Below are positions 109-14,484 of a stretch of 64,000 nucleotides of DNA, in pieces. How positions within the stretch are numbered: position 1 is the first letter of the stretch; the number at the start of each line of letters is the position of its first letter. The notes beneath the pieces were generated by a model that searched no databases, was not told the DNA's origin, and was given only the letters and a program-made list of their open reading frames with translations. Origin of the DNA: Nautiliaceae bacterium (GTDB lineage Bacteria > Campylobacterota > Campylobacteria > Campylobacterales > Nautiliaceae); assembly GCA_027062285.1 (NCBI GenBank), contig JAMOTL010000111.1:167-64166 (forward strand), in the 5' to 3' direction. The translations under genes and the position numbers were made by a program.

Positions 109-1950
109 GTTGCAATCCCCTTGAATCGAGTCGGTGTTTCAATCAACGATAGATGCGATTTCAGGTGCTCTATTTTGGGTCGCAATCCCCTTAAGTCGGG
201 TCGGTATTTCAATTCAGATATCATCTTACCTCTAAAATATCTTTTAAAGTCGCAATCCCCTTAAGTCGGGTCGGTATTTCAATAAGAAAACCTTCACTAT
301 CATGTAGATAGTTTATAGTCGCAATCCCCTTAAGTCGGGTCGGTATTTCAATTCAGATATCATCTTACCTCTAAAATATCTTTTAAAGTCGCAATCCCCT
401 TAAGTCGGGTCGGTATTTCAATCCATTATCATTGACTCACTGACAAGATACGGTGAAATGGTCGCAATCCCCTTAAGTCGGGTCGGTATTTCAATGTAGA
501 AGCTACGACGTTCAAGCAGCCTGGTACCTTGATGTCGCAATCCCCTTAAGTCGGGTCGGTGTTTCAATGAAGATGAAATAGCGTTCAGCTCAGTAGCGAG
601 TTCGCTGTCGCAATCCCCTTAAATCGGGTCGGTGTTTCAATATAATTTGTACGATATTTAAGAGAACCACTATTTTTAGTCGCAATCCCCTTAAATCGGG
701 TCGGTGTTTCAATTTAACATCAAATATGTTCAACATTCAATTGGAAGGGTTACGGTCGCAATCCCCTTAAATCGGGTCGGTGTTTCAATATCTTAATGAT
801 TTTTATTCATTGCTTAGTGTGAAGGTGAGTCGCAATCCCCTTAAGTCGGGTCGGTGTTTCAATAGATATATAGATGTGAAAGAAGGGGTGGTTCTGATAT
901 GTCGCAATCCCCTTAAATCGGGTCGGTGTTTCAATAATCCATGCTGACGATGTAATGGTTGTAGCGCTTATTAGGTCGCAATCCCCTTAAATCGGGTCGG
1001 TGTTTCAATATACAGTTATTTTATTTTTTAATTCTTCAATTGTATGTCGCAATCCCCTTAAATCGGGTCGGTGTTTCAATAAAAAATTTAAAAAAACAAA
1101 TAGAAACTTATTTAGGTCGCAATCCCCTTAAATCGGGTCGGTGTTTCAATGACAAAAATGGGAAAGAGTTAAAATAAAATTGAGTGTCGCAATCCCCTTA
1201 AATCGGGTCGGTGTTTCAATATAATTTGTACGATATTTAAGAGAACCACTATTTTTAGTCGCAATCCCCTTAAATCGGGTCGGTGTTTCAATTTAACATC
1301 AAATATGTTCAACATTCAATTGGAAGGGTTACGGTCGCAATCCCCTTAAATCGGGTCGGTGTTTCAATATCTTAATGATTTTTATTCATTGCTTAGTGTG
1401 AAGGTGAGTCGCAATCCCCTTAAGTCGGGTCGGTGTTTCAATAGATATATAGATGTGAAAGAAGGGGTGGTTCTGATATGTCGCAATCCCCTTAAATCGG
1501 GTCGGTGTTTCAATAATCCATGCTGACGATGTAATGGTTGTAGCGCTTATTAGGTCGCAATCCCCTTAAATCGGGTCGGTGTTTCAATATACAGTTATTT
1601 TATTTTTTAATTCTTCAATTGTATGTCGCAATCCCCTTAAATCGGGTCGGTGTTTCAATGACAAAAATGGGAAAGAGTTAAAATAAAATTGAGTGTCGCA
1701 ATCCCCTTAAATCGGGTCGGTGTTTCAATAAAACCACAAAACAACTACAAACCAACAGAGGTAGTCGCAATCCCCTTAAATCGGGTCGGTGTTTCAATAC
1801 AGAGTTGATGGGCAAGACAGTTGTTATCAAAGAATTGTCGCAATCCCCTTAAATCGGGTCGGTGTTTCAATTAATACTGATGTATTAAAAATAACATTTA
1901 CACAGAACCCTTATAGTCGCAATCCCCTTAAATCGGGTCGGTGTTTCAAT
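109..1950 (-). CRISPR. CRISPR array 1: 26 copies of a 35-nt repeat (+ strand GTCGCAATCCCCTTAAATCGGGTCGGTGTTTCAAT), 25 spacers of 34-44 nt (17 unique)
   Basis: I mapped the repeats by eye at 109, 179, 249, 318, 388, 461, 534, 607, 679, 755, 829, 901, 975, 1046, 1116, 1186, 1258, 1334, 1408, 1480, 1554, 1625, 1695, 1764, 1837 and 1916. The leftmost copy (109-143) has 3 substitutions. Copies 2-6 carry an AAG/GTA variant. The strand call is inferred from the degenerate repeat on the left, the leader on the right, and the minus-strand repeat ending in ATTGCGAC. Confidence 0.97.
642..1729. repeat. Tandem segmental duplication inside array 1 (unit about 579 bp; the second copy lacks one spacer-repeat unit)
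   Basis: Six spacers with their repeats at 642-1080 recur identically at 1221-1659, including the AAG repeat variant (829-863 equals 1408-1442). Spacer 1151-1185 recurs at 1660-1694. Spacer 1081-1115 is present only in the first copy. Confidence 0.9.
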
Positions 1951-2160
1951 AGTCCTAAATTTCGGACTTTTGAAAGCAAATATTAAATTAACATTAAAAA
2001 TTTTTAATGCGACTTTTTGCAACAAAATGCCTAAATTTCGGGTTTTCAAAGAACTTTTTTAAATTCGGCAAAAAATGCTAAAATTGTATAAAATTTATAA
2101 AAAAAGCAATATTTTACCTGATTTAAAATCTATTAATATTATACCAAAAAGGAATAAAAA
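1951..2160 (-). promoter_or_regulatory. Putative leader of array 1 (also the divergent promoter region toward cas1)
   Basis: This is an AT-rich 210-bp non-coding stretch next to the non-degenerate end of the array. It contains a 24-nt motif, ATTTCGGGTTTTCAAAGAACTTTT (2035-2058), that is 23/24 identical to 12723-12746 beside array 2. A second motif-like copy lies at 1954-1976, and an 18-bp perfect palindrome, CATTAAAAATTTTTAATG, at 1992-2009. Confidence 0.6.
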
Positions 2161-3015
2161 TTGAAAGATTTATTTATAACCCGTCCCGTTAAAATATCAA
2201 GAGATGCTAAAAGTTTAAAAATAGATGAGGGAAACTTCAAAAAAATTCCCGTTTCTTTGATAAGAAGTGTTTATATTTTCGGAAATGCAGAATTAAACAA
2301 TAGTGCGAGGAATTTATTGTTAGAGTATTCAAGACCTATTTATCTTTTTTCTTCAAAAGGAGAGTTTAGAGGGATTATCCATAATGCAAAATTAAAAAGC
2401 AATTATAAAAACAGGATTTTGCAGTATAAAAATATAGATAACTTAGATATTGCAAAATTTATTGTAAAAAAGAAAATCGAAACAATAGAACATTATACAA
2501 AAAGATCTTTAAACAGATATAAAGAAAAACTTGAAAGTGCAGAAAAATTAAATGAAATTTTAGGAGTTGAGGGGAGTTGTAGCAGATATATGTTTGAAAA
2601 GATAAAAAAAGAGCTTGAAAAAGCAGGTATAGAATTTAAAGGTAGAGAGTTTAGACCCGTTAAAGACAGGGTGAATTCTCTTTTGAGTTTTACTTATTCT
2701 CTTTATTATATGTTTTTGCATACTGTCATCTTAGAAGAAGGGTTTGACCCGTATATTGGTTTTTTGCATAAAAAAAGAGGTACTCATATGGCGTTTGTAA
2801 GCGATGTGATGGAGGGATACAGGGTTTATTTGAGTGCTTTTGTTGTTAAGATTTTGAAAAGAGGAATAATGAAAGATGAGGATTTTAAAGACGGGATTTT
2901 TTTAAACTATGAAGGGAAAAAGAAGTTTATAAGTTATTATTTGGACTTTATAAAAATCCTTGATAATTACTATTTTCTTGAAGAGATAAAGACTAAATTA
3001 AACGCTCACTTATAA
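2161..3015 (+). CDS. cas1: CRISPR-associated endonuclease Cas1 (locus 1), TTG start
   Basis: The 284-aa translation has Cas1 hallmarks: GVEG (catalytic Glu), GFDPYIGFLH (His) and SDVMEGYR (Asp/Glu). It is about 40% identical by eye to the second Cas1 at 8938-9765 and lies adjacent to the array. Confidence 0.9.
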   Translation: MKDLFITRPVKISRDAKSLKIDEGNFKKIPVSLIRSVYIFGNAELNNSARNLLLEYSRPIYLFSSKGEFRGIIHNAKLKSNYKNRILQYKNIDNLDIAKFIVKKKIETIEHYTKRSLNRYKEKLESAEKLNEILGVEGSCSRYMFEKIKKELEKAGIEFKGREFRPVKDRVNSLLSFTYSLYYMFLHTVILEEGFDPYIGFLHKKRGTHMAFVSDVMEGYRVYLSAFVVKILKRGIMKDEDFKDGIFLNYEGKKKFISYYLDFIKILDNYYFLEEIKTKLNAHL

Positions 3016-4102
3016 AAGTTTTATCTAAGTTGCCATTTATTAAGAGTTCGTTTATATCTTTTCCGTATTTTGCATCCCAGTTTAAAAATTTTACATTTAC
3101 ATCATATTCTCTTACTTTTTTAGCAAGGTTTAAGCTTCCTTGAAGTCCGGCTTTATCTTTGTCAAATGCTAAAATTATGGTTTTACCTTTAAAATATGAA
3201 AAATTTATAGGGTTAAAGCTTCCAATTCCCTCAACTCCCACTACATTGATTTTTTTTAGTGACAGTGCGTCGATATGTCCTTCTGTGAAATAAAAAGTGT
3301 CGAATTTTTTAAGTTTGTTTAGTGTTAGCGGGTATGGAAGTGGGTTTAAAAATCTTTTGTTTGACATTTCAAGCTCTTTGAATTTTCCCGGGTATATGTT
3401 TCTGAATCTAAGAGCCGTTAGTAAATTTGAATATAAATCAAAAGAGGGTATTACCGTAAATGAAGAAAAACTGAATTTAAATTTTCCTTTGTGCAATATT
3501 CCGAATTGATTTAGGTATTTGTAATCAAAAAGATTTAAAAGTTTATCCGTTAAATTAAAAGAGTCTTCTTTTGATAAAGAGCCTATGTTTTTGAAATAAG
3601 TGATTTTTCTGTTTAGATAGTAAGCGTTTTTTAGAGTTTGGTCGGTTTTTAGTGAAAAGCTGTAAATATAAGAGATAATGGTTTGGAATTTTTCTTCTAA
3701 ATCAAGATATTTAAAGTTTTTTATATTTTCGCTAAGGGAATAGATTTTTTGTTTTTCGGGGATTTTTAGAGGTTTTAGAATTATTTTTATTTTAATTTTT
3801 GTGGATTTGTTGTTTGAGGGTATTTTATAGTTTTCTTCGTAACCGTTTAAGAGGTTAAAAATATCTTTGTTGCTAAGCCCTCTAAATTCTTTTAAATAAG
3901 TCCAAATAGGGATAATTTCTCCACATTTGTTTTTTCTGTTGCATATAATGATTGGTTTTAGTTCTGTTTTGTTTGGAATGTATGCTTCTTTTTTATGGCA
4001 AAAAGGACATCTTAAATGATAATACGTAGCACGTTTTTTAGGTTCGAGTTCTGGGAGTAAAAGTTCTATGTCTATATTTTGAAAAAGTTTATTTAAATCC
4101 AT
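2993..4102 (-). CDS. DnaG-like protein: N-terminal CHC2-type zinc finger plus C-terminal TOPRIM domain, inverted between cas1 and cas2
   Basis: The 369-aa protein has CPFCH...C(x5)C at residues 32-60, resembling the DnaG zinc-binding domain. FTEGHIDALS (TOPRIM Glu) and ILAFDKDKAGLQG (DxD) closely resemble DnaG motifs IV and V. No helicase-binding C-terminal domain is present. The gene overlaps the cas1 3' end by 23 nt in convergent orientation. Confidence 0.65.
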   Translation of the reverse strand: MDLNKLFQNIDIELLLPELEPKKRATYYHLRCPFCHKKEAYIPNKTELKPIIICNRKNKCGEIIPIWTYLKEFRGLSNKDIFNLLNGYEENYKIPSNNKSTKIKIKIILKPLKIPEKQKIYSLSENIKNFKYLDLEEKFQTIISYIYSFSLKTDQTLKNAYYLNRKITYFKNIGSLSKEDSFNLTDKLLNLFDYKYLNQFGILHKGKFKFSFSSFTVIPSFDLYSNLLTALRFRNIYPGKFKELEMSNKRFLNPLPYPLTLNKLKKFDTFYFTEGHIDALSLKKINVVGVEGIGSFNPINFSYFKGKTIILAFDKDKAGLQGSLNLAKKVREYDVNVKFLNWDAKYGKDINELLINGNLDKTFISERLI

Positions 4103-4110
4103 CGAGCCTC

Positions 4111-4134
4111 TTTTTTGTATAATTATACAAAAAA
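4111..4134. promoter_or_regulatory. 24-bp perfect palindrome carrying TATAAT on both strands, in the 41-bp gap between the divergent TOPRIM gene and cas2
   Basis: TTTTTTGTATAATTATACAAAAAA is its own reverse complement and sits between the start codons at 4102 (-) and 4144 (+). Confidence 0.4.
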
Positions 4135-4143
4135 GGATAAAAA

Positions 4144-4389
4144 TTGCGTTTTGTTGTGGCGTATGATGTCGAAGATGACAGAAAAAGGGTAAAAATTCAA
4201 AAATTTATTTCATCTTTTAGCGATGATTTTCAAAAATCGGTGTATGAAATTGATGTGAGTAAATCCCAAATTAAAGAGATTTTTAAGTTTTTAAATGAAA
4301 TTTGTGAAGAAGATGATAAATTTTTAATATTTCCGGTTATTGAAAGTTTTAGTTTTGGTAAGAAAAACAGAGTGGAGTTTATTATATGA
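4144..4389 (+). CDS. cas2: Cas2 family protein (first of a tandem pair, locus 1), TTG start
   Basis: The 81-aa protein begins MRFVVAYDV (beta1 with the conserved Asp) and has QKSVYEID. Its size is typical of Cas2. Confidence 0.85.
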   Translation: MRFVVAYDVEDDRKRVKIQKFISSFSDDFQKSVYEIDVSKSQIKEIFKFLNEICEEDDKFLIFPVIESFSFGKKNRVEFII

Positions 4390-4634
4390 ATTTAATAATT
4401 TCATATGATATCAGCGATGAAAAAAGATTAAGAAAAGTCGCTAAATATTTAGAAAAAGTTAGTTTTAGAGTGCAGTATTCCGTTTTTTTGTTTCCTAATC
4501 CTAAAAGAGAGCATTTACAAAAAGTTATAAGTGATTTAGTTAAAATGATAGGGGAAGAAGACAGTATTAAGGTGTATAAATTCAGTATGAAGTATGCTAT
4601 TTCAAATTATGAAATCGAAAAATTTATAGTATAG
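4386..4634 (+). CDS. cas2: Cas2 family protein (second of the tandem pair, locus 1)
   Basis: The 82-aa protein begins MNLIISYDISDEKRLRKVAKYL and has QYSVF. Its start overlaps the previous cas2 stop in an ATGA. Confidence 0.85.
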   Translation: MNLIISYDISDEKRLRKVAKYLEKVSFRVQYSVFLFPNPKREHLQKVISDLVKMIGEEDSIKVYKFSMKYAISNYEIEKFIV

Positions 4635-4642
4635 GGATAAAG

Positions 4643-4996
4643 ATGGATGATATTTTTGTAAAAATTGATGAAATGTTTGAAAATGAAAATGTGGCAAAAG
4701 AGATTTTGAATGAGCTTAGAAATATTAAATTTGTTTTGACATCGGGGAGGGAAATTCAAAAAGAAGAAAAAAGAAAATTAAATAAGGCTTATTATAAGTT
4801 TTATTATGAATTCAGAGAAAGAATGAAAGAAAGACCAAGGGAGGGGTATTTTCCGGAATTTGAAATAGATTGTAAAACATACGCCATTAATAAAAACGGA
4901 CTTTTATATGAGAAAACTTCTAATAAAGTTTTGCCAAAATCAGAAGCATTTAAAATTTATGAAAAGATATTTTATGAAGGATATTTTATAATGTGA
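4643..4996 (+). CDS. Hypothetical protein (117 aa) in the cas operon
   Basis: This ORF starts 9 nt after cas2b on the same strand. I recognise no motif. It is rich in charged residues and Tyr. Confidence 0.55.
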   Translation: MDDIFVKIDEMFENENVAKEILNELRNIKFVLTSGREIQKEEKRKLNKAYYKFYYEFRERMKERPREGYFPEFEIDCKTYAINKNGLLYEKTSNKVLPKSEAFKIYEKIFYEGYFIM

Positions 4997-5043
4997 CAAA
5001 TTTTGTCGCAAGAATTTATTATTATTTCAGAAAAAGGACTGAT

Positions 5044-5421
5044 ATGAAAAGAATGTTTTTACTTTTTTCACATAAATTAACTGATGAGCAAATTGAAGAT
5101 GCAAAGAAAAGTTTTGGTGTTGATGAGTTTATATATTTGCCACAGAACCTTCAAGAAATATGGTCGAATATTCCGCCTGAAGTTGAGGATATAAAGCCGT
5201 TGCTTGAAGATATCAAACAGTTTTTAAAAGAAAATGCAAAAACGGGAGATATTGTTTTGATTCAAGGTGATTTTGGTGCTGTTGTTGAGATGGTTGAGTT
5301 TATAAGGTTTTGGCTTTTGCCTGTGTATGCCACTACTAAAAGAATCTCAAAAGAGATTGAAAAAGATGGTAAAATCGTAAAGGTGAGTGAATTTAGGCAT
5401 GTGAGATTTAGAAAATATTAA
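5044..5421 (+). CDS. Small Rossmann-like CRISPR-linked protein, possibly Csx20-like (family assignment from memory only)
   Basis: I prefer the ATG at 5044 because AAAGGA lies 5-6 nt upstream; the track's GTG at 4993 is the alternative. The beta-alpha-beta pattern is MFLLFSHKLTDEQIEDAKKSFGV ... GDIVLIQGDFGAVVE. The gene sits directly upstream of the CARF-HEPN gene. Confidence 0.45.
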   Translation: MKRMFLLFSHKLTDEQIEDAKKSFGVDEFIYLPQNLQEIWSNIPPEVEDIKPLLEDIKQFLKENAKTGDIVLIQGDFGAVVEMVEFIRFWLLPVYATTKRISKEIEKDGKIVKVSEFRHVRFRKY

Positions 5422-5430
5422 GGAGAAGGA

Positions 5431-6732
5431 ATGAAAAGGGGGGTTATTACTGTTTTGGGAGCGATTAGTTGTTGGAATAATGAAACAAAAAAATATGATG
5501 TTAATAAAAAAGCCGAATATAAAGTGGATGAAAAATTGCAAAACATTTTTTCTTTCAAAAAGAAAAAATATACTAATATGTTACCTCTTTTGATAGAAAA
5601 TTTTTCTTCGAATTATGAACTTGTGCCTATATATACTCTAAAAGCAAAAGATATACAAACAAATGTTTTGGAAAAATGTGAAAATTTAAAAATTGATATT
5701 GAAAAGTTGTTTGAAAGAGGTGTTTTAATTGAAAATGAAAATGATTTTAAAAGTATTCTAAAGGATATAGATAAAAAAATAAAAGAATATGATGAAGTAA
5801 TTATTGATGTAAGTCATGGTTTTAGACATTTTCCTATTCTTATGACCATTGACTTAATTATTACATCTTTAAAAAATGACAGTGTTAATAAAATAAAGCA
5901 TATTCTTTTTGCGGAAGAAATTCAACCAATGCATTATTATAAGATAATTGATTTAAAAGAATATCTTGAACTTGCTAATTTAGCAGTTATTTTTAATATT
6001 TTTAAAGAAAATTACAGCATTTCAAATCATATTAAGATTAAAAATAAAGAATATGTTGAAATATTAAATCTTATGAAAAAATTTTCAAAAGATTTAATGG
6101 CCTTGTCTATTGATAATTTGCTTTTTAAAGTTGTGCCAACATTAAAAAAAGATTTAAAAGATTTGTTAGAAAAAGATTTTATTTTATTTCAAGATGAAAT
6201 AAACAATATTTTAAGACTTTTAGATGATATTTATACACCTAAAAATCATAGGTATCAAACATTTTATTACATAGCAGATGATGTTTCAAAAGATGAAAAA
6301 GGATATTTAGCCGTTGCTATTTCTTTAATTTTTGAGGGAGTTTCTTTTTATTTTTATACTCAGTTTAAAAAATCTCCAAAATTAAAGGAATTTTTTGAAA
6401 AATTAAAAAAAGATAATTTAAATGATTATGATATTTTGAATTTGTGTAGAGGTGTAATTGATAGAAATAAAGATGACTTAATAGTTTCAAAGAAGATTGC
6501 TAAATATTTTAATGATGAGATTAAAAATGAATTTTATAAAAAAAAAGAAGAAATTTTAAAACCTTTTTATAGAGGTAAATATAATCATTTATTGAGTCTT
6601 TTTTATAAATCAAGAAAATTAAGAAATAATTTATTGCATGCTAATAGTGGAGAGAGAGTTGAGAAAGTACATAAGGAAGTTAGAAACTTAATAAAAGCTT
6701 ATAAAAGAACTTTAATCAAAGGTAAAAAATGA
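5431..6732 (+). CDS. CARF-HEPN protein of the Csx1/Csm6 type (predicted cyclic-oligoadenylate-activated RNase)
   Basis: The N-terminus has VITVLG plus DVSHGFRHFP, which is CARF-like. The C-terminus has RNNLLH, matching the HEPN Rx4-6H motif. Length is 433 aa. Confidence 0.8.
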   Translation: MKRGVITVLGAISCWNNETKKYDVNKKAEYKVDEKLQNIFSFKKKKYTNMLPLLIENFSSNYELVPIYTLKAKDIQTNVLEKCENLKIDIEKLFERGVLIENENDFKSILKDIDKKIKEYDEVIIDVSHGFRHFPILMTIDLIITSLKNDSVNKIKHILFAEEIQPMHYYKIIDLKEYLELANLAVIFNIFKENYSISNHIKIKNKEYVEILNLMKKFSKDLMALSIDNLLFKVVPTLKKDLKDLLEKDFILFQDEINNILRLLDDIYTPKNHRYQTFYYIADDVSKDEKGYLAVAISLIFEGVSFYFYTQFKKSPKLKEFFEKLKKDNLNDYDILNLCRGVIDRNKDDLIVSKKIAKYFNDEIKNEFYKKKEEILKPFYRGKYNHLLSLFYKSRKLRNNLLHANSGERVEKVHKEVRNLIKAYKRTLIKGKK

Positions 6733-7967
6733 AAGGAGTGGTTGTAAGGTATAAAACACTCTCAAATCCGGAAAAATTAAAAAAATATGAAAAAGAGTAT
6801 GACTTAGTATTGCCTCAAAAGATGGGAGGGAGTGGAAATAATATTTTAAATAAAGAAATAAAAGAAATAAAAAAGTGGGTTAATAAACATAATATAAAAG
6901 AACTTTTTATAACCAATTTATCTAAAAAAGAAGCCGAGAAACTTCAAAAAGAGCTTGGTATAGACGTGGAGATAATAAAAAACAATAAAAATATTTCAGA
7001 TAAAATCTTTGCTCTTTTGTTACTTTTAAAAAGACTCTCCATAAAAGGAAACTTAAAAGTAAAAGAAGATTTTGAGTGGTTAAAAGAAAAATTACAAAAA
7101 AATATAACAAAAGCTACATTTTTAAATTATTTAAAAGATATCGAAATTATTTTAAATGATGACAGGTTTAACAAAAGAGAAGTTGTTGAAGTTAAAAATA
7201 TTAATAAATCTGAAATAGAACTTAATCTTATCAGAAAAGGTGATTTGATATTAAAGATATTTAATGAAATAGATGATGTTGAAAAATTAAGCGAATATTT
7301 AGTTGAAATAGATGATGAAACAATGCATATGTTAGATGAAATTACTAAAAAAAGAGTTAAATCATTAAAAGAAAAAATTATCTATAAACAAAAGCCTTTT
7401 GAAAATTTGGATAATATAAGAGATATTTTTCTAGAATTTGAAGAAGCAATAAAAAACAGAAAAATTATTGAATTTATAGAGAAAGAAGATGGAGTTATCC
7501 ATTATAATATAATTCCCCTAAAACTTGTTTTTATGGAAAATAACTGGTATTTAGCAGGTGTGGATAAAAATAAAGTTAAGTTTTTCAGACTTAATTTTAT
7601 AGATGATTTTAAAATAGGTAAAAAAGAATTTAGCAAAAATAGTTTAAAGAAAGAATATTTTAGATTCTTAGAGGAGTTTGAAACCCCTTTTACTGAGTTT
7701 GGTAAAAAATGGAAAAAGCTTGTTTTAAAAGTGGATAAAAGTAAAAAACATTATTTTGAAAAAAAAGTTCATTTTCCAAGAGAAAAAGATAAAGAAACTG
7801 ATAAAGACGGTAACTTGATAATTGAATGTGCCTATACACAGCCGCTTGAAGTGCTTCCAATTATTAAAAAATGGCTTCCGTTTGTTGAGGTTATTGAAAG
7901 TGAAGACGGAAGTGTGGAAGAAGAGCTAAAAAAAGACCTGCTGTTAGCCCTAAATAAACTTTCTTAA
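6729..7967 (+). CDS. WYL-domain transcriptional regulator (wHTH-WYL-WCX-like) with an extra N-terminal domain of about 90 aa
   Basis: The NNWYLAG motif sits in a beta-rich segment (HYNIIPLKLVFMENNWYLAGVDKNKVKFFRLNFI). An HTH-like segment lies upstream and a conserved-looking C-terminal extension follows. The start overlaps the csx1 stop in an ATGA. Confidence 0.75.
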   Translation: MKGVVVRYKTLSNPEKLKKYEKEYDLVLPQKMGGSGNNILNKEIKEIKKWVNKHNIKELFITNLSKKEAEKLQKELGIDVEIIKNNKNISDKIFALLLLLKRLSIKGNLKVKEDFEWLKEKLQKNITKATFLNYLKDIEIILNDDRFNKREVVEVKNINKSEIELNLIRKGDLILKIFNEIDDVEKLSEYLVEIDDETMHMLDEITKKRVKSLKEKIIYKQKPFENLDNIRDIFLEFEEAIKNRKIIEFIEKEDGVIHYNIIPLKLVFMENNWYLAGVDKNKVKFFRLNFIDDFKIGKKEFSKNSLKKEYFRFLEEFETPFTEFGKKWKKLVLKVDKSKKHYFEKKVHFPREKDKETDKDGNLIIECAYTQPLEVLPIIKKWLPFVEVIESEDGSVEEELKKDLLLALNKLS

Positions 7968-8937: not shown

Positions 8938-9765
8938 ATGAAAAAGAATTTATATATTAATGAAGGTGAAATAAAAAGAGATTGTAATGTTTTAAAAATA
9001 GCTAATAAAAAAATTCCTATTAGTATGATTGATAACGTTTTTGTGTTTGAAAAAGTTAAAATGAGTATTAGCGCCAGGAACTTACTTTTGAAAAATAAAA
9101 GAAATATTATTTTTTTAAATAAGAGATATGAATTTGTTGGGATTTTATTGCCTGAATTTTTAAGAAGTGATTTTGGTAATCGGTTGTGGCAGTATGAGAA
9201 TAGGAATAATTTGGATTGTGCTAAATTTATTGTTTTTAAAAAAATAGAAGAAATTGAGAAAAATATTAATAAAAATTTGGATTTTATGAAATTGAAACTC
9301 AAACAAGCTAAAACGTTAAATGAAACTTTAGGAATAGAAGGGCAAGCAAGTAGGCTTATGTTTGATAATCTTAAAAAGAAACTTAGAAAAAAAGGTATCA
9401 CTGAATTTGAAAAAAGAGCATATAATCCTGCGACCGATAGAATAAACGGGGTTTTGAGTTTTTTATATACCCTTTATTACAGTTATGTAATTAGTGAGAT
9501 AATTTCTATCGGGTTTGATCCTTATATCGGGTTTTTACATCAAAAAAGAGGAAAACATGCAGTTTTTGCAAGTGATGTTATGGAAGAAGCAAGGGTAAAA
9601 CTTACATTTTTATGTTTAGAGGTTTTAGATGAAGTTTATCCTGATATGTTTGAGGATAGATATTTGACACGTGAAGGGAGAAAAAAAGTTTTAAAAAAAT
9701 TTGATGAGTTTTTATTAGAATATGATAACTCTATTTTAAAGAATTTTAAGGAGAAGAAATGTTAG
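8938..9765 (+). CDS. cas1: CRISPR-associated endonuclease Cas1 (locus 2)
   Basis: The 275-aa protein has the motifs GIEG, GFDPYIGFLH and SDVMEEAR. It is a paralog of the cas1 at 2161. Confidence 0.9.
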   Translation: MKKNLYINEGEIKRDCNVLKIANKKIPISMIDNVFVFEKVKMSISARNLLLKNKRNIIFLNKRYEFVGILLPEFLRSDFGNRLWQYENRNNLDCAKFIVFKKIEEIEKNINKNLDFMKLKLKQAKTLNETLGIEGQASRLMFDNLKKKLRKKGITEFEKRAYNPATDRINGVLSFLYTLYYSYVISEIISIGFDPYIGFLHQKRGKHAVFASDVMEEARVKLTFLCLEVLDEVYPDMFEDRYLTREGRKKVLKKFDEFLLEYDNSILKNFKEKKC

Positions 9766-10499
9766 TGTTTATAACTCATCCCAAATATTTTGATAAAAGA
9801 AAAATAGCAAGAAAGAAAATAGATCTTATTTATATTTTCAATTCTAAAAAGCTTTACAGTCAATTAAGTGAAAAATATAAGTGTGTAAACATAGGGAAAG
9901 ACGGAAAAATTAAACAAGAAAATTTTTTTCCTCAAGCAAAAAAATACAAACGTATTACAAAAGAAAAATTCATTGATTTAAAAATAGGTATCGTAAAATA
10001 TTTTGCAAAGAAGAAACATTCAGTACAAAGAAAATATTATGTTATGTTGAAAGGACCTTACTCTGATCCTTTGATGCATTATGGTTTTCATAAAGCAAAA
10101 AAAAGTGAATTCAACGAAGGAACAATGATATTAGATGCTATGATAGTAAATTATATAGCTGAAATATTTAGATTGGAAAAAGGTGAAGAGTTTACCAATA
10201 AAAATAAAAGATACATTGAATTACTCCTAAATTTTTCTCATAGTTTTTATAGGGCGTATGTTTATTCTCTGGGATATGAAAGGGGTATGGAAATTTTTTC
10301 TGAAGTTTTTAAATTTAACTATTTTAAAAAAGTTAGTCTGTACTATACATTTAATAAATTCGATCTTTATCAAGATAGGTTTCATTTTAATTATTTAAAA
10401 GTTTTAAGCAGACTTTTTGTTGAAGACATTCATAATAACAATATTGAGGAATTTATACAAAAAAATATCACTTATTATAAGGAGAATGGATGGTTGTAA
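9759..10499 (+). CDS. Uncharacterised 246-aa protein embedded between cas1 and cas2 (locus 2)
   Basis: An AAGGAG RBS lies 5 nt upstream. The ORF overlaps the cas1 stop by 7 nt and the cas2 start by 10 nt, suggesting translational coupling. I recognise no Cas4, Cas6, Csn2, RT or nuclease motif. It contains only one Cys. Confidence 0.7.
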   Translation: MLVFITHPKYFDKRKIARKKIDLIYIFNSKKLYSQLSEKYKCVNIGKDGKIKQENFFPQAKKYKRITKEKFIDLKIGIVKYFAKKKHSVQRKYYVMLKGPYSDPLMHYGFHKAKKSEFNEGTMILDAMIVNYIAEIFRLEKGEEFTNKNKRYIELLLNFSHSFYRAYVYSLGYERGMEIFSEVFKFNYFKKVSLYYTFNKFDLYQDRFHFNYLKVLSRLFVEDIHNNNIEEFIQKNITYYKENGWL

Positions 10500-10732
10500 T
10501 AGCTTATGATATTAGAGACAATAAAAGATTAAAAAAAATAGCTAAATATCTTGAATCTCATGGTATTAGAGCACAAAGAAGTGTTTTTGAAATAGATATT
10601 AGTCCTAGAAAAGCTAAAAAAATTTTTCAGGGATTAAAGAATATTATAGGTGAGGGAGATAAATGTTTTTTATTTGAAATAAAAGATAAAGAAGATATTC
10701 AGGCAAATACAGATATTGAAAGGATATTGTAA
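10490..10732 (+). CDS. cas2: Cas2 family protein (first of the tandem pair, locus 2)
   Basis: The 80-aa protein begins MVVIAYDIRDNKRLKKIAKYL and has QRSVFEIDI. An AAGGAG RBS precedes it. Confidence 0.85.
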   Translation: MVVIAYDIRDNKRLKKIAKYLESHGIRAQRSVFEIDISPRKAKKIFQGLKNIIGEGDKCFLFEIKDKEDIQANTDIERIL

Positions 10733-10986
10733 TGTATATAGTAGTAACCTATGATATTTCAAATAACAAACAAAGAAATAAATTAGCTAAAGAATTGCTT
10801 GTATTTGGAATAAGAACTCAAAAGAGTTTTTTCGAATGTGAAGTGACTGAAAAAGAACTTAAAGTAATTAAAAAAATTCTAAAAAGATATTCTCAAAGTG
10901 ATGATTTTGTAACAATTTATAAAATAAAAGTGTTAGAAAGAGTAGGTGATGTTGAGTATCTTGAAATAGATGATTTGATTTTTTAA
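10732..10986 (+). CDS. cas2: Cas2 family protein (second of the tandem pair, locus 2)
   Basis: The 84-aa protein begins MYIVVTYDISNNKQRNKLAKEL and has QKSFFECEV. Its start overlaps the previous stop in a TAATG. Confidence 0.85.
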   Translation: MYIVVTYDISNNKQRNKLAKELLVFGIRTQKSFFECEVTEKELKVIKKILKRYSQSDDFVTIYKIKVLERVGDVEYLEIDDLIF

Positions 10987-11084: not shown

Positions 11085-12638
11085 GTCAATCCTTTAAATC
11101 GGGTCATTGGTTAAACCTCCATTTTCAGGGGCGAAAAATGTCTCTATGTATTAGGTCGCAATCCCCTTAAATCGGGTCATTGGTTAAACCTTCAAGATGT
11201 GGCAGATGCTAAAGTGGCCGGGTTCTGTCGCAATCCCCTTAAATCGGGTCATTGGTTAAACTGGTACAACCGAAGATAACTTAAGACCTACTGAAGGTCG
11301 CAATCCCCTTAAATCGGGTCATTGGTTAAACAATATGGCGTCCGGGACTTTGGAGGTCAAAATGGTAAAGTCGCAATCCCCTTAAATCGGGTCATTGGTT
11401 AAACCTAGTGCGGCACCTACCATTAGAACTCAATTACCGTATGGGTCGCAATCCCCTTAAATCGGGTCATTGGTTAAACTTAAAATTTAGAAAAGGTGAG
11501 AGCGAAAAGCTCTCAATAGAGTCGCAATCCCCTTAAATCGGGTCATTGGTTAAACCCTCTGATGAAGTAGAAATAGATTTAGATGCGCTTTTCCGTCGCA
11601 ATCCCCTTAAATCGGGTCATTGGTTAAACATCCTCGGCGACCTGCAGGACATTATAGCATGCGGAGGAAAGTCGCAATCCCCTTAAATCGGGTCATTGGT
11701 TAAACAGACCGGCAGCTGAAAAACTATTTAACGCACAATGGGTCGCAATCCCCTTAAATCGGGTCATTGGTTAAACAAAGTACAAAAAAAAATAAAAGAA
11801 GTAAGAGAGTTGTTAGTCGCAATCCCCTTAAATCGGGTCATTGGTTAAACCATTTGGAAGAGAAAAAAATTCCAATTACATATAAAAATGTCGCAATCCC
11901 CTTAAATCGGGTCATTGGTTAAACTGAGCGGAGCGGTGAAAGCCGCACCTGGAGTAGCGTCGCAATCCCCTTAAATCGGGTCATTGGTTAAACGCAGTAA
12001 TAGGTGCTACTCTGATGGTAGCATCATATGTGTCGCAATCCCCTTAAATCGGGTCATTGGTTAAACACAAAACAGTGTAGTTAAAGGTCAAAATGCAAAA
12101 GTTAGTCGCAATCCCCTTAAATCGGGTCATTGGTTAAACCGAGATCAATCCATATGATATGTTGATATATTTTATGTCGCAATCCCCTTAAATCGGGTCA
12201 TTGGTTAAACTGAAGTAATGTTGAATGCGATGTTTGAGGCCGGCTACAACGGTCGCAATCCCCTTAAATCGGGTCATTGGTTAAACGGAAATTTTTGGGG
12301 AGAAGGGAGCGAAAATCTCGGTCGCAATCCCCTTAAATCGGGTCATTGGTTAAACTCCCAGTGGAAGTTGTGATGTATAGCCTCTACGAGGGTCGCAATC
12401 CCCTTAAATCGGGTCATTGGTTAAACCTCTTATAATTTTAAAAAACGATGAGGAAGCAATTAGTCGCAATCCCCTTAAATCGGGTCATTGGTTAAACATT
12501 GGTCACGCATGAAAATCGAAGGCGACAAGGGGTCGCAATCCCCTTAAATCGGGTCATTGGTTAAACCTACGTTTAGCACCGCTGCAAAGGAACTTGCCAC
12601 TGAGTCGCAATCCCCTTAAATCGGGTCATTGGTTAAAC
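11085..12638 (-). CRISPR. CRISPR array 2: 22 copies of a 35-nt repeat (+ strand GTCGCAATCCCCTTAAATCGGGTCATTGGTTAAAC), 21 unique spacers of 33-41 nt
   Basis: The repeats are regularly spaced. The leftmost copy (11085-11116) is degenerate at 32 nt, with deletions and a substitution. All other copies look identical by eye. The strand is inferred as for array 1. Confidence 0.97.
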
Positions 12639-12830
12639 CCATCGAACTTTCTATGTTTTTGCGACTTTTTAAAGCTTAAAGTTTGCTTAAGCGACTTTGG
12701 GCAAAGTCTTAAAAATATCAATATTTCGGATTTTCAAAGAACTTTTAATTTTTCACAAAGTTTAACAAAAAATTGCTTTTTTTGCAAATTTTGAAAATTT
12801 TGTGAAAAAAATAATTAATTTTAAAAGCGA
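12639..12830 (-). promoter_or_regulatory. Putative leader of array 2
   Basis: This AT-rich non-coding stretch lies next to the intact end of the array. It contains ATTTCGGATTTTCAAAGAACTTTT (12723-12746), which is 23/24 identical to 2035-2058. GCGACTTT elements occur at 12661 and 12691, matching one at 2009 in leader 1. Confidence 0.6.
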
Positions 12831-13112
12831 TTCCTATCCTCCACCCTTAAATGATAGGGTTTTCAAAAAGCTTTATTAAAGGAATCATATTTATATATTA
12901 TAACATATTTTCATATACTTTCTATGTCAGAAAATAAAAATTTAAGGGGAAAGTATAAAAAGATTAGCGAAAATTATTACGGCAATAAGTGTAGCGGCGG
13001 TTTTATCGATGAGTGCGAGTGCGTTTGAGCCTGTTAAAAAATCTTATATTGATATAGCTTTTAAGTAAATTCCTCCTTTTTTTTAGGTTATAATAAATAA
13101 AAAGGAGAGAGA

Positions 13113-13667
13113 ATGTGGTATTTGATAGGAGGGGTTTTATTTATTCTTTTTTTACTTGTACTTATGTACAATTCACTAATCTACAGAAAAAATCAGATAG
13201 AGAATATGGAAGGTGCCATTGATGCTTATCTGAAACAGAGATATGATTTGATTCCAAATCTGGTTGAGAGCGTAAAAGCGTATATGGAGCATGAAAAAAG
13301 CGTTCTTGAAGAGATAACAAAACTCAGAACTCTTGCAATGAGCGCAAAAAGTTTTGACGAAAAAATAGAATACGAAAGCAGACTCTCCGAACTTCTTGAT
13401 AAGTTACTGCTGAATGTAGAAAACTACCCTCAGTTAAGAGCGAGTGAAAACTTCTTACAGCTTCAAGAGACTTTAACGGAACTCGAAGAAAATATAGCAG
13501 CGGCGAGAAGGGCGTACAACCAGGCGGTTACTGACTACAACAACGCAATAGAAATGTTTCCTACAAACATAATGGCTTCATGGATGGGACTTAAAAGAAG
13601 AAAAGTGTTTGAAATACCTGAAAATGAAAGAAAGAATATAGATGTCGGTAAATTATTCAGAAATTAA
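13113..13667 (+). CDS. lemA: LemA family membrane protein
   Basis: It has an N-terminal TM helix followed by YNSLIYRKNQIENMEGAIDAYLKQRYDLIPNLVE ... ENYPQLRASENFLQLQ ... ARRAYNQAVTDYNNAIEMFP, a typical LemA pattern. Confidence 0.85.
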   Translation: MWYLIGGVLFILFLLVLMYNSLIYRKNQIENMEGAIDAYLKQRYDLIPNLVESVKAYMEHEKSVLEEITKLRTLAMSAKSFDEKIEYESRLSELLDKLLLNVENYPQLRASENFLQLQETLTELEENIAAARRAYNQAVTDYNNAIEMFPTNIMASWMGLKRRKVFEIPENERKNIDVGKLFRN

Positions 13668-14484
13668 CAGAATAAGAAAAAGATATATTGAAAAATTTTT
13701 TGGGTATCTGCTGGTTTTTATTCTTCTTGAGACGGGACTTTTTTTTCTTTTGAGAGGCTCTGAATATTTTTTGATAATTTTTCCCGTGGGTTTTTTAGGT
13801 TTGTTTTTTTTAACCTCTGTTCCTGATGCTTACAAAAATTTTTTGAAAGAGAATATTTATAAACCTTTTCTTGAAGAATTAGGAATAGAATATAAGCCTG
13901 AGAGAGGTTTTGATGAAGAAATAGTTAAAAACTGTGTTCTTCTCCCGGGTTATGACGACTATGAATCAAAAAACTACATAAAAGGCGGAAATTTCGAAGC
14001 TGCTGAAATAAAGCTCAGCGAAGAGTACTATGACAGTGATGAAAAAAGATATGAGTCAAGGACTGTTTTTGAAGGGGTATTACTTATTGTTTATTCAAAA
14101 AAAACGCTCACTCCTCTTTTAATAACCAAAAACTCTTTTCATTTGAGCGATATACTCCCTATATTTACCGATAAATACAGACAGAAAATGGATGATTTGG
14201 AGTTTGAGAAAATGTTTGATGTTTACGCAGCCGACCCGATAGAAGCCAGGAAAATACTCACACACAATGTTATGAGAGAGCTTATAAAACTGAAAAAAGA
14301 GACTGATTTTTATGAAATGTTTTTTGAGGGTACGCTGCGTTTTGTGACATTTAAAGATTTAAAATTGGTAGACATTTCTTCTATGTTTACTGAAATGAAT
14401 GAAGAGAGGTTTTTGTTAAACATATTTGGAGTAATAAAAATTTTTAAAGTAGTAGAGTTTTTAAATGAAAAAGCAGAGGCTTAA
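13642..14484 (+). CDS. Two-TM membrane protein, LemA-associated (possibly DUF3137-like; family from memory)
   Basis: The 280-aa ORF overlaps the lemA end by 26 nt. Two hydrophobic helices lie near the N-terminus. I see no catalytic motif. Confidence 0.55.

Follow-up and report, generated by a model that had tools for sequence, protein, structure and literature searches.

A DnaG-type primase-like gene linked to CRISPR adaptation genes in Nautiliales-like bacteria

Introduction

What is a primase-like gene doing inside a CRISPR adaptation module? The question is raised by a stretch of 64,000 nucleotides from a Nautiliaceae bacterium (assembly GCA_027062285.1, contig JAMOTL010000111.1, positions 167 to 64,166; hereafter the window), in which a gene for a DnaG-type primase-like protein lies, inverted, between cas1 and a tandem pair of cas2 genes. 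How Cas1-Cas2 obtains double-stranded prespacers from single-stranded invader debris is an open question, as is which enzymes finish the gapped product of integration. To our knowledge, the only dedicated synthesis enzymes studied so far are the CRISPR-associated Prim-Pol proteins (CAPPs), which are of the archaeo-eukaryotic primase (AEP) type, and fusions of a reverse transcriptase (RT) to Cas1. Here we report that the primase-like gene (hereafter the primase gene) belongs to CRISPR adaptation modules as a genuine and conserved accessory, and that its product is very probably a functional primase-like enzyme of the DnaG type, tied to adaptation and derived from mobile elements.

The primase gene and its immediate neighbours

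The primase gene forms a compact module with the following features of the window:

2161 to 3015, plus strand: cas1 (Pfam Cas_Cas1, 5.1e-52; TIGR00287, 3.7e-48)
2993 to 4102, minus strand: primase-like gene, 369 aa, an open reading frame (ORF) with an ATG start; a member of the UAS-18 'toprim' family discussed below
4103 to 4143, no strand assigned: divergent intergenic region of 41 nt with a palindrome inside
4144 to 4389, plus strand: cas2a, first of the tandem pair (Pfam CRISPR_Cas2, 5.5e-13)
4386 to 4634, plus strand: cas2b, second of the tandem pair (Pfam CRISPR_Cas2, 5e-17)
4643 to 4996, plus strand: u117, encoding a 117-aa protein that is co-conserved and has no family match

The primase gene and cas1 are convergent and their 3' ends overlap by 23 nt, while 41 nt separate the start of the primase gene from the start of the first cas2 (4144). 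A ribosome-binding site (AAGAGG) is located 5 nt upstream of its ATG. An initial annotation, made from the sequence alone, had described a 369-aa ORF on the opposite strand filling the space between cas1 and cas2; its coordinates were borne out, and the identities of cas1 and cas2 were established by Pfam and NCBIfam.

Linkage to cas genes across genomes and metagenomes

Homologues of the primase were sought in 185,579 species genomes, in JGI metagenomes and in IMG/VR; each locus was then translated in six frames, and its ORFs were probed with the Cas1, Cas2 and u117 proteins of the window itself (loci are given below as L numbers and homologous proteins as P numbers). In 26 of the 27 scanned loci whose primase is at least 39% identical to that of the window, a cas2-cas2 or cas2-cas1-cas2 cluster lies directly divergent to the primase gene, usually with cas1 convergent. 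The sole exception, L025, is a 3.3-kb contig that begins inside the primase gene; it is 98.7% identical to a longer relative, L002, which has both cas2-cas2 and cas1. When homologues were grouped at 90% identity, all 17 clusters with retrievable context (17/17, including exact-protein look-ups) were cas-adjacent. The initial annotation had proposed surveying homologues for an association with cas1 and cas2, and the association proved to be strict. These primases form one clade in a neighbour-joining tree. The cas2a gene adjoins the primase gene in all loci of this clade that have sequence on that side, and cas2b is co-conserved across the clade. No cas1 or cas2 was detected in approximately 50 loci with relatives of at most 38% identity, which were probed only with the window Cas proteins, and a Pfam census of 67 larger neighbours in these loci revealed no Cas1.

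The linked loci have two gene orders. In architecture A, that of the window, cas1 is convergent with the primase gene, which is followed across the divergent junction by cas2a, cas2b and u117. In architecture B (L001, L024, L028 and L083-L086), the primase gene is divergent to an operon with the order u117, cas2, cas1, cas2. Both retain a short divergent junction, with the primase gene on one side and the cas2/u117 operon on the other. Compared with the window, Cas1 in architecture B is 31-33% identical and the primase 45-47% identical. The pair of primase and u117 has thus remained part of adaptation modules despite rearrangement, and in company with highly divergent lineages of Cas1.

The primase gene is under purifying selection. 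The ratio of nonsynonymous to synonymous substitution rates (dN/dS) was 0.046, 0.066 and 0.059 in comparisons with orthologues at 97%, 95% and 81% protein identity, at or below that of cas1, cas2a, cas2b and u117 in the same comparisons, with dS reaching about 2.

These data bear on a possibility that the initial annotation had raised, namely that the gene is a hitch-hiker: a remnant of a mobile element that inserted between an ancestral cas1 and cas2 and was merely inherited. Its inverted orientation relative to cas1 and cas2, its mobile-element ancestry (see below) and its narrow taxonomic range would all fit such a history. However, a passenger would not be expected to show a dN/dS of about 0.05 (0.05-0.07 across comparisons) over dS values of up to about 2, nor catalytic residues that are invariant among proteins 40-80% identical to the window primase, nor an association that is kept in every cluster and is found in two gene orders with Cas1 lineages about 32% identical. 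We therefore consider hitch-hiking highly improbable. Purifying selection, cas linkage, the two architectures and active spacer acquisition (see below) together argue that the primase is a component of the module.

The gene u117, the paired cas2 genes and other neighbours

A further gene, u117, accompanies the primase and cas2 genes in both architectures, with a dN/dS of 0.03-0.15. Matches to u117 were found by phmmer in L001, L002, L005-L007, L024, L026, L028, L029, L031-L033 and L049, and a word-indexed search returned eight close homologues. The protein has no match in Pfam, NCBIfam or PADLOC, its only hit being a non-significant one to phrog_36288 (E = 0.016). An AlphaFold2 (AF2) model of moderate quality (predicted local distance difference test score, pLDDT, of 77.6) had no Foldseek match at E<1. 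We consider u117 a candidate new adaptation accessory or adaptor protein.

Two different cas2 genes are present in both adaptation modules of the window (4144-4634 and 10490-10986) and in every primase-linked module elsewhere. The pairing points to a Cas2 heterodimer that would accompany this lineage of Cas1.

The second module of the window carries a different gene, u246 (246 aa; 9759-10499, plus strand), which is co-directional with and overlaps both cas1 (8938-9765) and the first cas2 (10490-10732). The initial annotation had taken the presence of an extra gene in the same position in both modules to mean that the position itself is functionally meaningful. This argument is not supported, since u246 runs in the same direction as its neighbours and no similarity between it and the primase family could be detected. 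Instead, because the primase gene of architecture B lies outside cas2-cas1-cas2, the conserved unit is the gene set with its divergent junction and not a slot between cas1 and cas2. We also considered u246 as a divergent primase and rejected this (hhalign probability 0.2%). It has no match in Pfam, NCBIfam, PHROG or PADLOC, fragments of a homologue occur in L006, and it is an adaptation-linked gene in its own right.

Several linked loci carry additional genes. In L082, a DarT-Macro (DarTG) pair and a MYG1-family exonuclease (4183-5544) come right after cas2-cas2-u117, and in L088 a MYG1-family exonuclease (346-1131) directly follows the same three genes. Two genes encoded between the primase gene and cas1 in L002 (9550-12683), L021 (1224-4393) and L025 (984-2951) specify an SF1 helicase that carries a TBP-TOTE domain and a protein of the TPR-OB/DUF7017 kind. 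The helicase was examined as a possible partner of the primase and rejected: the two genes match a TOTE-like candidate defence pair of PADLOC, PDC-M16A/B (2.5e-225, and 1.1e-38 for TPR-OB), and have TOTE-type domains. As they are confined to one subclade and match PDC-M16A/B, the pair looks like a separate system that was inserted.

Domain composition and predicted structure of the primase

Profile searches placed the protein among TOPRIM/DnaG-type primases. It matches Pfam Toprim_2 (8e-9, above the family cutoff), PHROG_47 'DNA primase' (7.8e-17, residues 6-355) and, in part, PADLOC PDLC03800 'RTasDnaG-like' (7.9e-9, residues 162-358). The NCBIfam dnaG model TIGR01391 scored 32.8 bits against a cutoff of 283.6, and only profile positions 252-347, the TOPRIM part, were aligned. 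There was no match to Pfam zf-CHC2 or to DnaB_bind, and none to the PADLOC Gabija, PARIS or OLD models; no ATPase domain was found. No match to AEP/PrimPol proteins was obtained in Pfam, NCBIfam, PHROGs or Foldseek, all significant matches being of the TOPRIM/DnaG type. A direct search of the PDB with the single sequence returned nothing, while searches with a family profile and with the predicted fold succeeded. With a score far below the TIGR01391 equivalog cutoff and no C-terminal DnaB-binding domain, the protein is not the housekeeping DnaG.

We aligned 25 homologues that are 40-80% identical to the window primase (alignment A1) and used the alignment to build an AF2 model (pLDDT 88.6, predicted TM-score 0.70). 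The following parts were delimited, all on the minus strand:

3833 to 4102: zinc-binding domain, residues 1-90, with four cysteines (Cys4: C32, C35, C54 and C60), from alignment A1 and the AF2 model
3749 to 3832: flexible linker, residues 91-118, with low pLDDT and variable in A1
3323 to 3748: N-terminal subdomain of the RNA-polymerase domain, residues 119-260, from invariant columns, Foldseek and profile
2996 to 3322: TOPRIM fold, residues 261-369 (E274-G-H-I-D278, D314-x-D316-x-A-G, D349-I-N351-E352)

In the model, a beta-ribbon (zinc ribbon; residues 27-65) is followed by two helices and then by the linker, of which residues 91-106 have a pLDDT below 50 and which varies in both length and sequence in A1; the catalytic part (residues 119-369) is two-part. 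C32, C35, C54 and C60 are invariant in the 25 homologues, as are a cluster of basic and acidic residues (R232, R234, K242, E243, E245, S247 and R250) and the TOPRIM positions E274-G-H-I, D314-x-D316-x-A-G and D349-x-N351, with D278 nearly so. The chain stops about 15 residues past its final TOPRIM motif; a DnaB-binding domain and a fused helicase are thus both missing.

A Foldseek search of the PDB with the model returned 24 matches at E<=1e-3, all of them to DnaG, T7 gp4 or human Twinkle primases. The best match, covering the whole protein over 404 columns, was to the zinc-binding and RNA-polymerase domains of Aquifex DnaG (2au3, 8.6e-11). RNA-polymerase domains of DnaG from B. subtilis, S. 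aureus, M. tuberculosis, E. coli and P. aeruginosa (5guj, 4edg, 5w33, 1eqn, 5vaz and 3b39) aligned over 265-288 columns (E 1e-8 to 5e-5) with target-normalised TM-scores of 0.50-0.55, and the T7 gp4 primase fragment and human Twinkle were also significant. Among viral predicted structures (BFVD) there were 85 matches at E<=1e-3, and the named ones among the 50 listed were primases, primase-helicases and other replication proteins. In a profile search of the PDB, residues 224-339 aligned with residues 184-307 of Aquifex DnaG, and the EGxxD and DxDxAG motifs aligned residue for residue with those of B. subtilis, S. aureus, P. aeruginosa and Aquifex DnaG and of T7 gp4.

Most of what the initial annotation had read from the protein sequence was confirmed. 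The DnaG-type fold that it suspected was recovered by Foldseek, the top matches all being primases. Both TOPRIM motifs that it quoted are present, FTEGHIDALS (E274/D278) and ILAFDKDKAG (D314/D316), and its remark that a DnaB-binding C-terminal domain is missing was correct. Two of the outcomes that it had listed as telling against its reading, namely searches without a TOPRIM/DnaG match and homologues never near cas genes, did not occur. The quoted zinc-finger motif also exists (C32-P-F-C35-H...C54-x5-C60), but its proposed likeness to the CHC2 finger of DnaG was wrong, as the finger is of the Cys4 kind found in T7-type phage primases. According to the model, the protein is a minimal but complete DnaG/T7-type core, with a predicted Cys4 zinc-binding domain, a linker and an RNA-polymerase domain with an intact-looking TOPRIM site.

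The TOPRIM centre could instead function as a metal-dependent nuclease that trims or generates prespacers, the role of Cas4 or DnaQ, with the zinc finger recognising DNA. TOPRIM domains act as nucleases in OLD, GajA, AriB and RNase M5. The model has weak structural similarity to the RNase M5 TOPRIM (Foldseek E about 0.03), no cas4 or dnaQ is visible in the locus among ORFs or by Pfam and NCBIfam, and the equivalent of motif III departs from the KYxNSPET of DnaG. Nevertheless, the full primase architecture is conserved, including the zinc-binding domain and the DnaG-specific N-terminal subdomain as well as the TOPRIM fold; the significant structural matches are all to primases, whereas nuclease-type TOPRIMs (RNase M5 and small TOPRIM proteins), like RecR, align only over a core of about 110 residues with E>0.02; and the nearest relatives are encoded in replication modules, which is consistent with replicative primases. 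A nuclease role is thus unlikely in our view.

Relatives of the primase in mobile elements

A search of the whole library with a hidden Markov model recovered 3,054 relatives at E<=1e-3, of which 69 had E<=1e-30. The CRISPR-linked clade is rare, as it collapses to about three representatives at 50% identity, and its range is narrow, comprising deep-sea-vent Nautiliales and Nautiliales-like vent metagenomes. Its sister group consists of Campylobacterota proteins of 490-580 aa with extra N- and C-terminal regions, such as P0191 (Poseidonibacter ostreae), P0188 and P0031; with profile E-values of 1e-56 to 1e-70, these are the closest relatives outside the CRISPR-linked clade. Their genes belong to stretches of small genes that all point the same way, together with genes for RecT, YqaJ, SSB, beta-clamp and ParA. 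More distant relatives come from Sulfurimonas, Helicobacter and vent metagenomes, and on either side of them lie genes for RecT, beta-clamp, ArdC/polyvalent-protein, methylase and SNF2. No cas genes are adjacent to the sister group or to other relatives outside the clade in the loci examined. A scan of viral contigs gave distant partial matches only, none of them belonging to the CRISPR clade. The simplest reading of these sequence relationships is that a replicative primase of a Campylobacterota mobile element was exapted and trimmed to its catalytic core.

A trimmed copy of a mobile-element primase might alternatively act as an autonomous defence factor or decoy that hinders or senses the replication of Campylobacterota phages or plasmids akin to its source and takes no part in spacer acquisition. 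The closest non-CRISPR relatives are indeed mobile-element primases with additional terminal regions, a DnaG-like family is tied to defence reverse transcriptases (the 'RTasDnaG-like' PADLOC family, 7.9e-9), and the surroundings are a defence island (Csx1, Csx20, WYL and DarTG, with PDC-M16 inserted in some loci). However, the linkage is specific to cas1, cas2 and u117, while effectors and other defence genes vary from locus to locus. Furthermore, the association survives both rearrangement and a swap of Cas1 lineage, and the primase gene invariably keeps its divergent junction with the operon of cas2 and u117. We consider this explanation improbable.

The divergent junction

The 41-nt junction contains a perfect 16-nt palindrome, TTGTATAATTATACAA, at 4115-4130, with TATAAT on both strands. 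The same core, TATAATTATA, is also found ahead of the primase gene in five other loci (L003, L007, L023, L032 and L033). The palindrome may represent back-to-back (bidirectional) promoters or an operator. In a generic scan of positions 1900-5000, promoters were not above the shuffled expectation and no terminators were found, so that the idea of a divergent promoter rests only on the conserved TATAATTATA palindrome. If it is correct, the primase gene and the cas2/u117 operon would probably be co-regulated.

The host CRISPR system

The remaining features of the locus are as follows:

109 to 1950, probably transcribed from the minus strand: CRISPR array 1, 26 repeats of 35 nt
1951 to 2160, minus strand: probable A+T-rich leader of array 1, with a shared motif at 2024-2058
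4993 to 5421, plus strand: Csx20 (2.4e-48)
5431 to 6732, plus strand: Csx1/Csm6-type CARF-HEPN protein (PADLOC, 1.1e-86)
6729 to 7967, plus strand: WYL-domain protein, 412 aa
8113 to 8538, plus strand: 5'(3')-deoxyribonucleotidase of the NT5C family (7e-16), between the two adaptation modules
8938 to 10986, plus strand: second adaptation module (cas1, u246, cas2, cas2)
11155 to 12638: CRISPR array 2
from about 13100: housekeeping genes (LemA, TatC, transaldolase, L25, Pth)

Housekeeping genes follow array 2, and the locus is therefore chromosomal. Contigs L003 and L004 are 97-99% identical to the window. The Csx20, Csx1/Csm6-type and WYL genes (4993-7967) form a type III accessory cluster. Since the window starts at the array, the effector genes lie outside it. 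In L016, a 99%-identical contig, csm5, csm4, csm3, csm2 and cas10/csm1 are located just past the same array (Csm1, 4.7e-59; Csm2, 5.9e-7; Csm3, 2e-51; Csm4, 3.2e-20; Csm5, 8e-12). With these csm genes and an identical repeat in L016, the host system is type III-A.

The L016 array (12153-13691) has 22 copies of the identical repeat but not one spacer in common with the window, at 99% identity of the Cas proteins. Between two such close strains the spacers have evidently turned over completely, which fits an actively acquiring module. A comparison of the window's 45 spacers (34-44 nt across arrays 1 and 2) against all fetched loci, including mobile elements with related primases, gave only self matches.

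Array 1 contains an exact internal duplication of 300 nt (606-905 and 1185-1484). Seven of its spacers are doubled as a block (s8-13 and s15 equal s16-22), and spacer 2 is identical to spacer 4. A motif of about 35 nt at 2024-2058 recurs at 12712-12746 (repeat family D14, 86% identity), in both cases 74 nt past the last repeat, and degenerate repeats are found near 108 and 11081, at the array ends opposite to this motif. The shared motif and the degenerate repeats at the opposite ends suggest that the leaders lie at 1951-2160 and after 12638 and that both arrays are transcribed from the minus strand. In minus-strand orientation, the repeat ends ...GGGGATTGCGAC.

A possible role in spacer acquisition

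The best overall explanation of these data, in our judgement, combines an adaptation-linked primase with priming of prespacers, and we regard this combination as evenly poised between right and wrong. According to this explanation, the primase would have been recruited from a mobile-element replication module as a dedicated accessory of a type III-A adaptation module composed of Cas1, two Cas2 proteins and u117. The zinc finger would recognise a short motif on single-stranded DNA (ssDNA) of the invader and so impose an initiation motif on the template. Such ssDNA could come, for example, from nuclease or Cas10-HD degradation products, or from replication or R-loop intermediates. The primase would then lay down a short primer that a host polymerase extends, converting the ssDNA into a duplex prespacer for Cas1-Cas2; the host polymerase would be needed because a DnaG-type enzyme synthesises short primers only. 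The primase might perhaps also help to prime or repair the gapped repeat after integration, a role that has been proposed for CAPPs. Taken by itself, the specific mechanism, priming of the second strand of the prespacer, is argued by analogy and is a tentative proposal that may well be wrong.

A bolder version of this scheme is an adaptation machine of five parts, in which Cas1, a Cas2a/Cas2b heterodimer, u117 and the primase would be physically bound to one another, and zinc-finger-directed priming would both make the second strand of the prespacer and set the start of the spacer. We think it doubtful that the whole of this holds. If it did, it would mean that DnaG-type prespacer biogenesis evolved independently of AEP-type CAPPs and RT-Cas1, and that type III adaptation repeatedly calls for de novo priming. 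The proteins concerned are small (369, 284, 81, 82 and 117 aa), and the set can therefore be expressed and tested directly.

A number of observations weigh against a priming role in adaptation. At the level of the protein, one homologue (P0018) carries N in place of D278, and at the position of the DnaG KYxNSPET motif the primase family reads K-E-[IL]-E-x-S, so that the handling of nucleoside triphosphates or template may differ. DnaG-type primases are normally weak without their helicase; the window primase has no module for interaction with a helicase, nor is a helicase encoded in the window locus. Intermediates of integration already expose 3'-OH ends, and thus a primase is not strictly needed for gap repair. 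The second adaptation locus of the same genome has no such primase gene, and most type III-A systems work without one. Finally, the clade is narrow, being confined to Nautiliales-like vent metagenomes, and common descent could account for some of the linkage, a possibility that the existence of two architectures and two Cas1 lineages speaks against.

Comparison with known systems

The association of this primase family with CRISPR loci is known at the level of a catalogue. The supplement of Altae-Tran et al. 2023 (Science; PMC10910872) contains the entry 'UAS-18, Auxiliary, 4 / 6.6, (toprim)', whose representative is a minus-strand gene at 462-1617 of IMG_3300026546 Ga0256913_10022199, as well as a second toprim-labelled entry, UAS-107 '(Toprim)'. 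The UAS-18 representative is the primase ORF of our locus L024 (1727-2881, corresponding to contig positions 463-1617, minus strand), which is 46% identical to the window primase over 354 aa (phmmer E 2.3e-87) and groups with it in one clade of the neighbour-joining tree. Its neighbours are cas2, cas1, cas2 and u117; the window gene likewise neighbours cas1, two cas2 genes, u117 and array 1. The two differ in gene order, L024 having architecture B and the window architecture A. The initial annotation had implied that a DnaG/TOPRIM-type adaptation component would be new, which the existing '(toprim)' entry contradicts. The catalogue gives a label, a class, a score and a picture of the locus only, and the searchable text of PMC10910872 does not mention the anatomy of a zinc finger plus RNA-polymerase domain, u117, the two architectures, selection data or a mobile-element origin. 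We found no study of a DnaG-type primase in adaptation in the open-access literature. The window gene is therefore a further member, in the other gene order, of a catalogued but uncharacterised family, and the value of the present analysis lies less in discovery than in the anatomy, the defined clade, the candidate partner u117 and the testable predictions.

Among characterised proteins, the closest in design are DnaG and T7 gp4, which share with the window primase the order of domains (zinc-binding, linker, RNA-polymerase) and the acidic TOPRIM motifs, and which gave the best structural matches. The window primase differs from DnaG in lacking the DnaB-binding C-terminal domain and in having a Cys4 finger in place of CHC2; T7 gp4 likewise has a Cys4 finger but carries a fused helicase, which the window primase does not. 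The Campylobacterota mobile-element primases have the same core domains, but are 490-580 aa long with extra ends and are encoded in replication modules. In OLD-class nucleases (OLD, GajA and AriB) the TOPRIM core is joined to an ABC-ATPase, and in RNase M5 it stands alone; the window primase differs from both in having a zinc finger and an N-terminal subdomain, and it has no ATPase domain. The RTasDnaG-like family represents another DnaG-type domain that was recruited to defence; its similarity to the window primase is limited to the catalytic core, and the locus lacks a reverse transcriptase.

The closest parallel in proposed function is with CAPPs, which are tied to Cas1-Cas2, mostly in type III loci. 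The tasks proposed for them are to turn short ssDNA into double-stranded prespacers, by priming and then copying it, and to assist in resolving the intermediate of integration (Zabrady et al. 2021, PMC8211822). Both are primase-class proteins linked to Cas1-Cas2, and the jobs suggested here for the window primase are the same. The difference is that CAPPs have the AEP/PrimPol fold and are also DNA polymerases, whereas the fold of the window primase, TOPRIM/DnaG, is unrelated to theirs and a polymerase domain is lacking. By this analogy, it is possible that the window primase is a functional analogue of CAPPs and not a relative. If so, a DnaG-type primase working with Cas1, two Cas2 proteins and u117 would be a third, independently recruited solution to the supply of double-stranded prespacers, alongside CAPPs and RT-Cas1.

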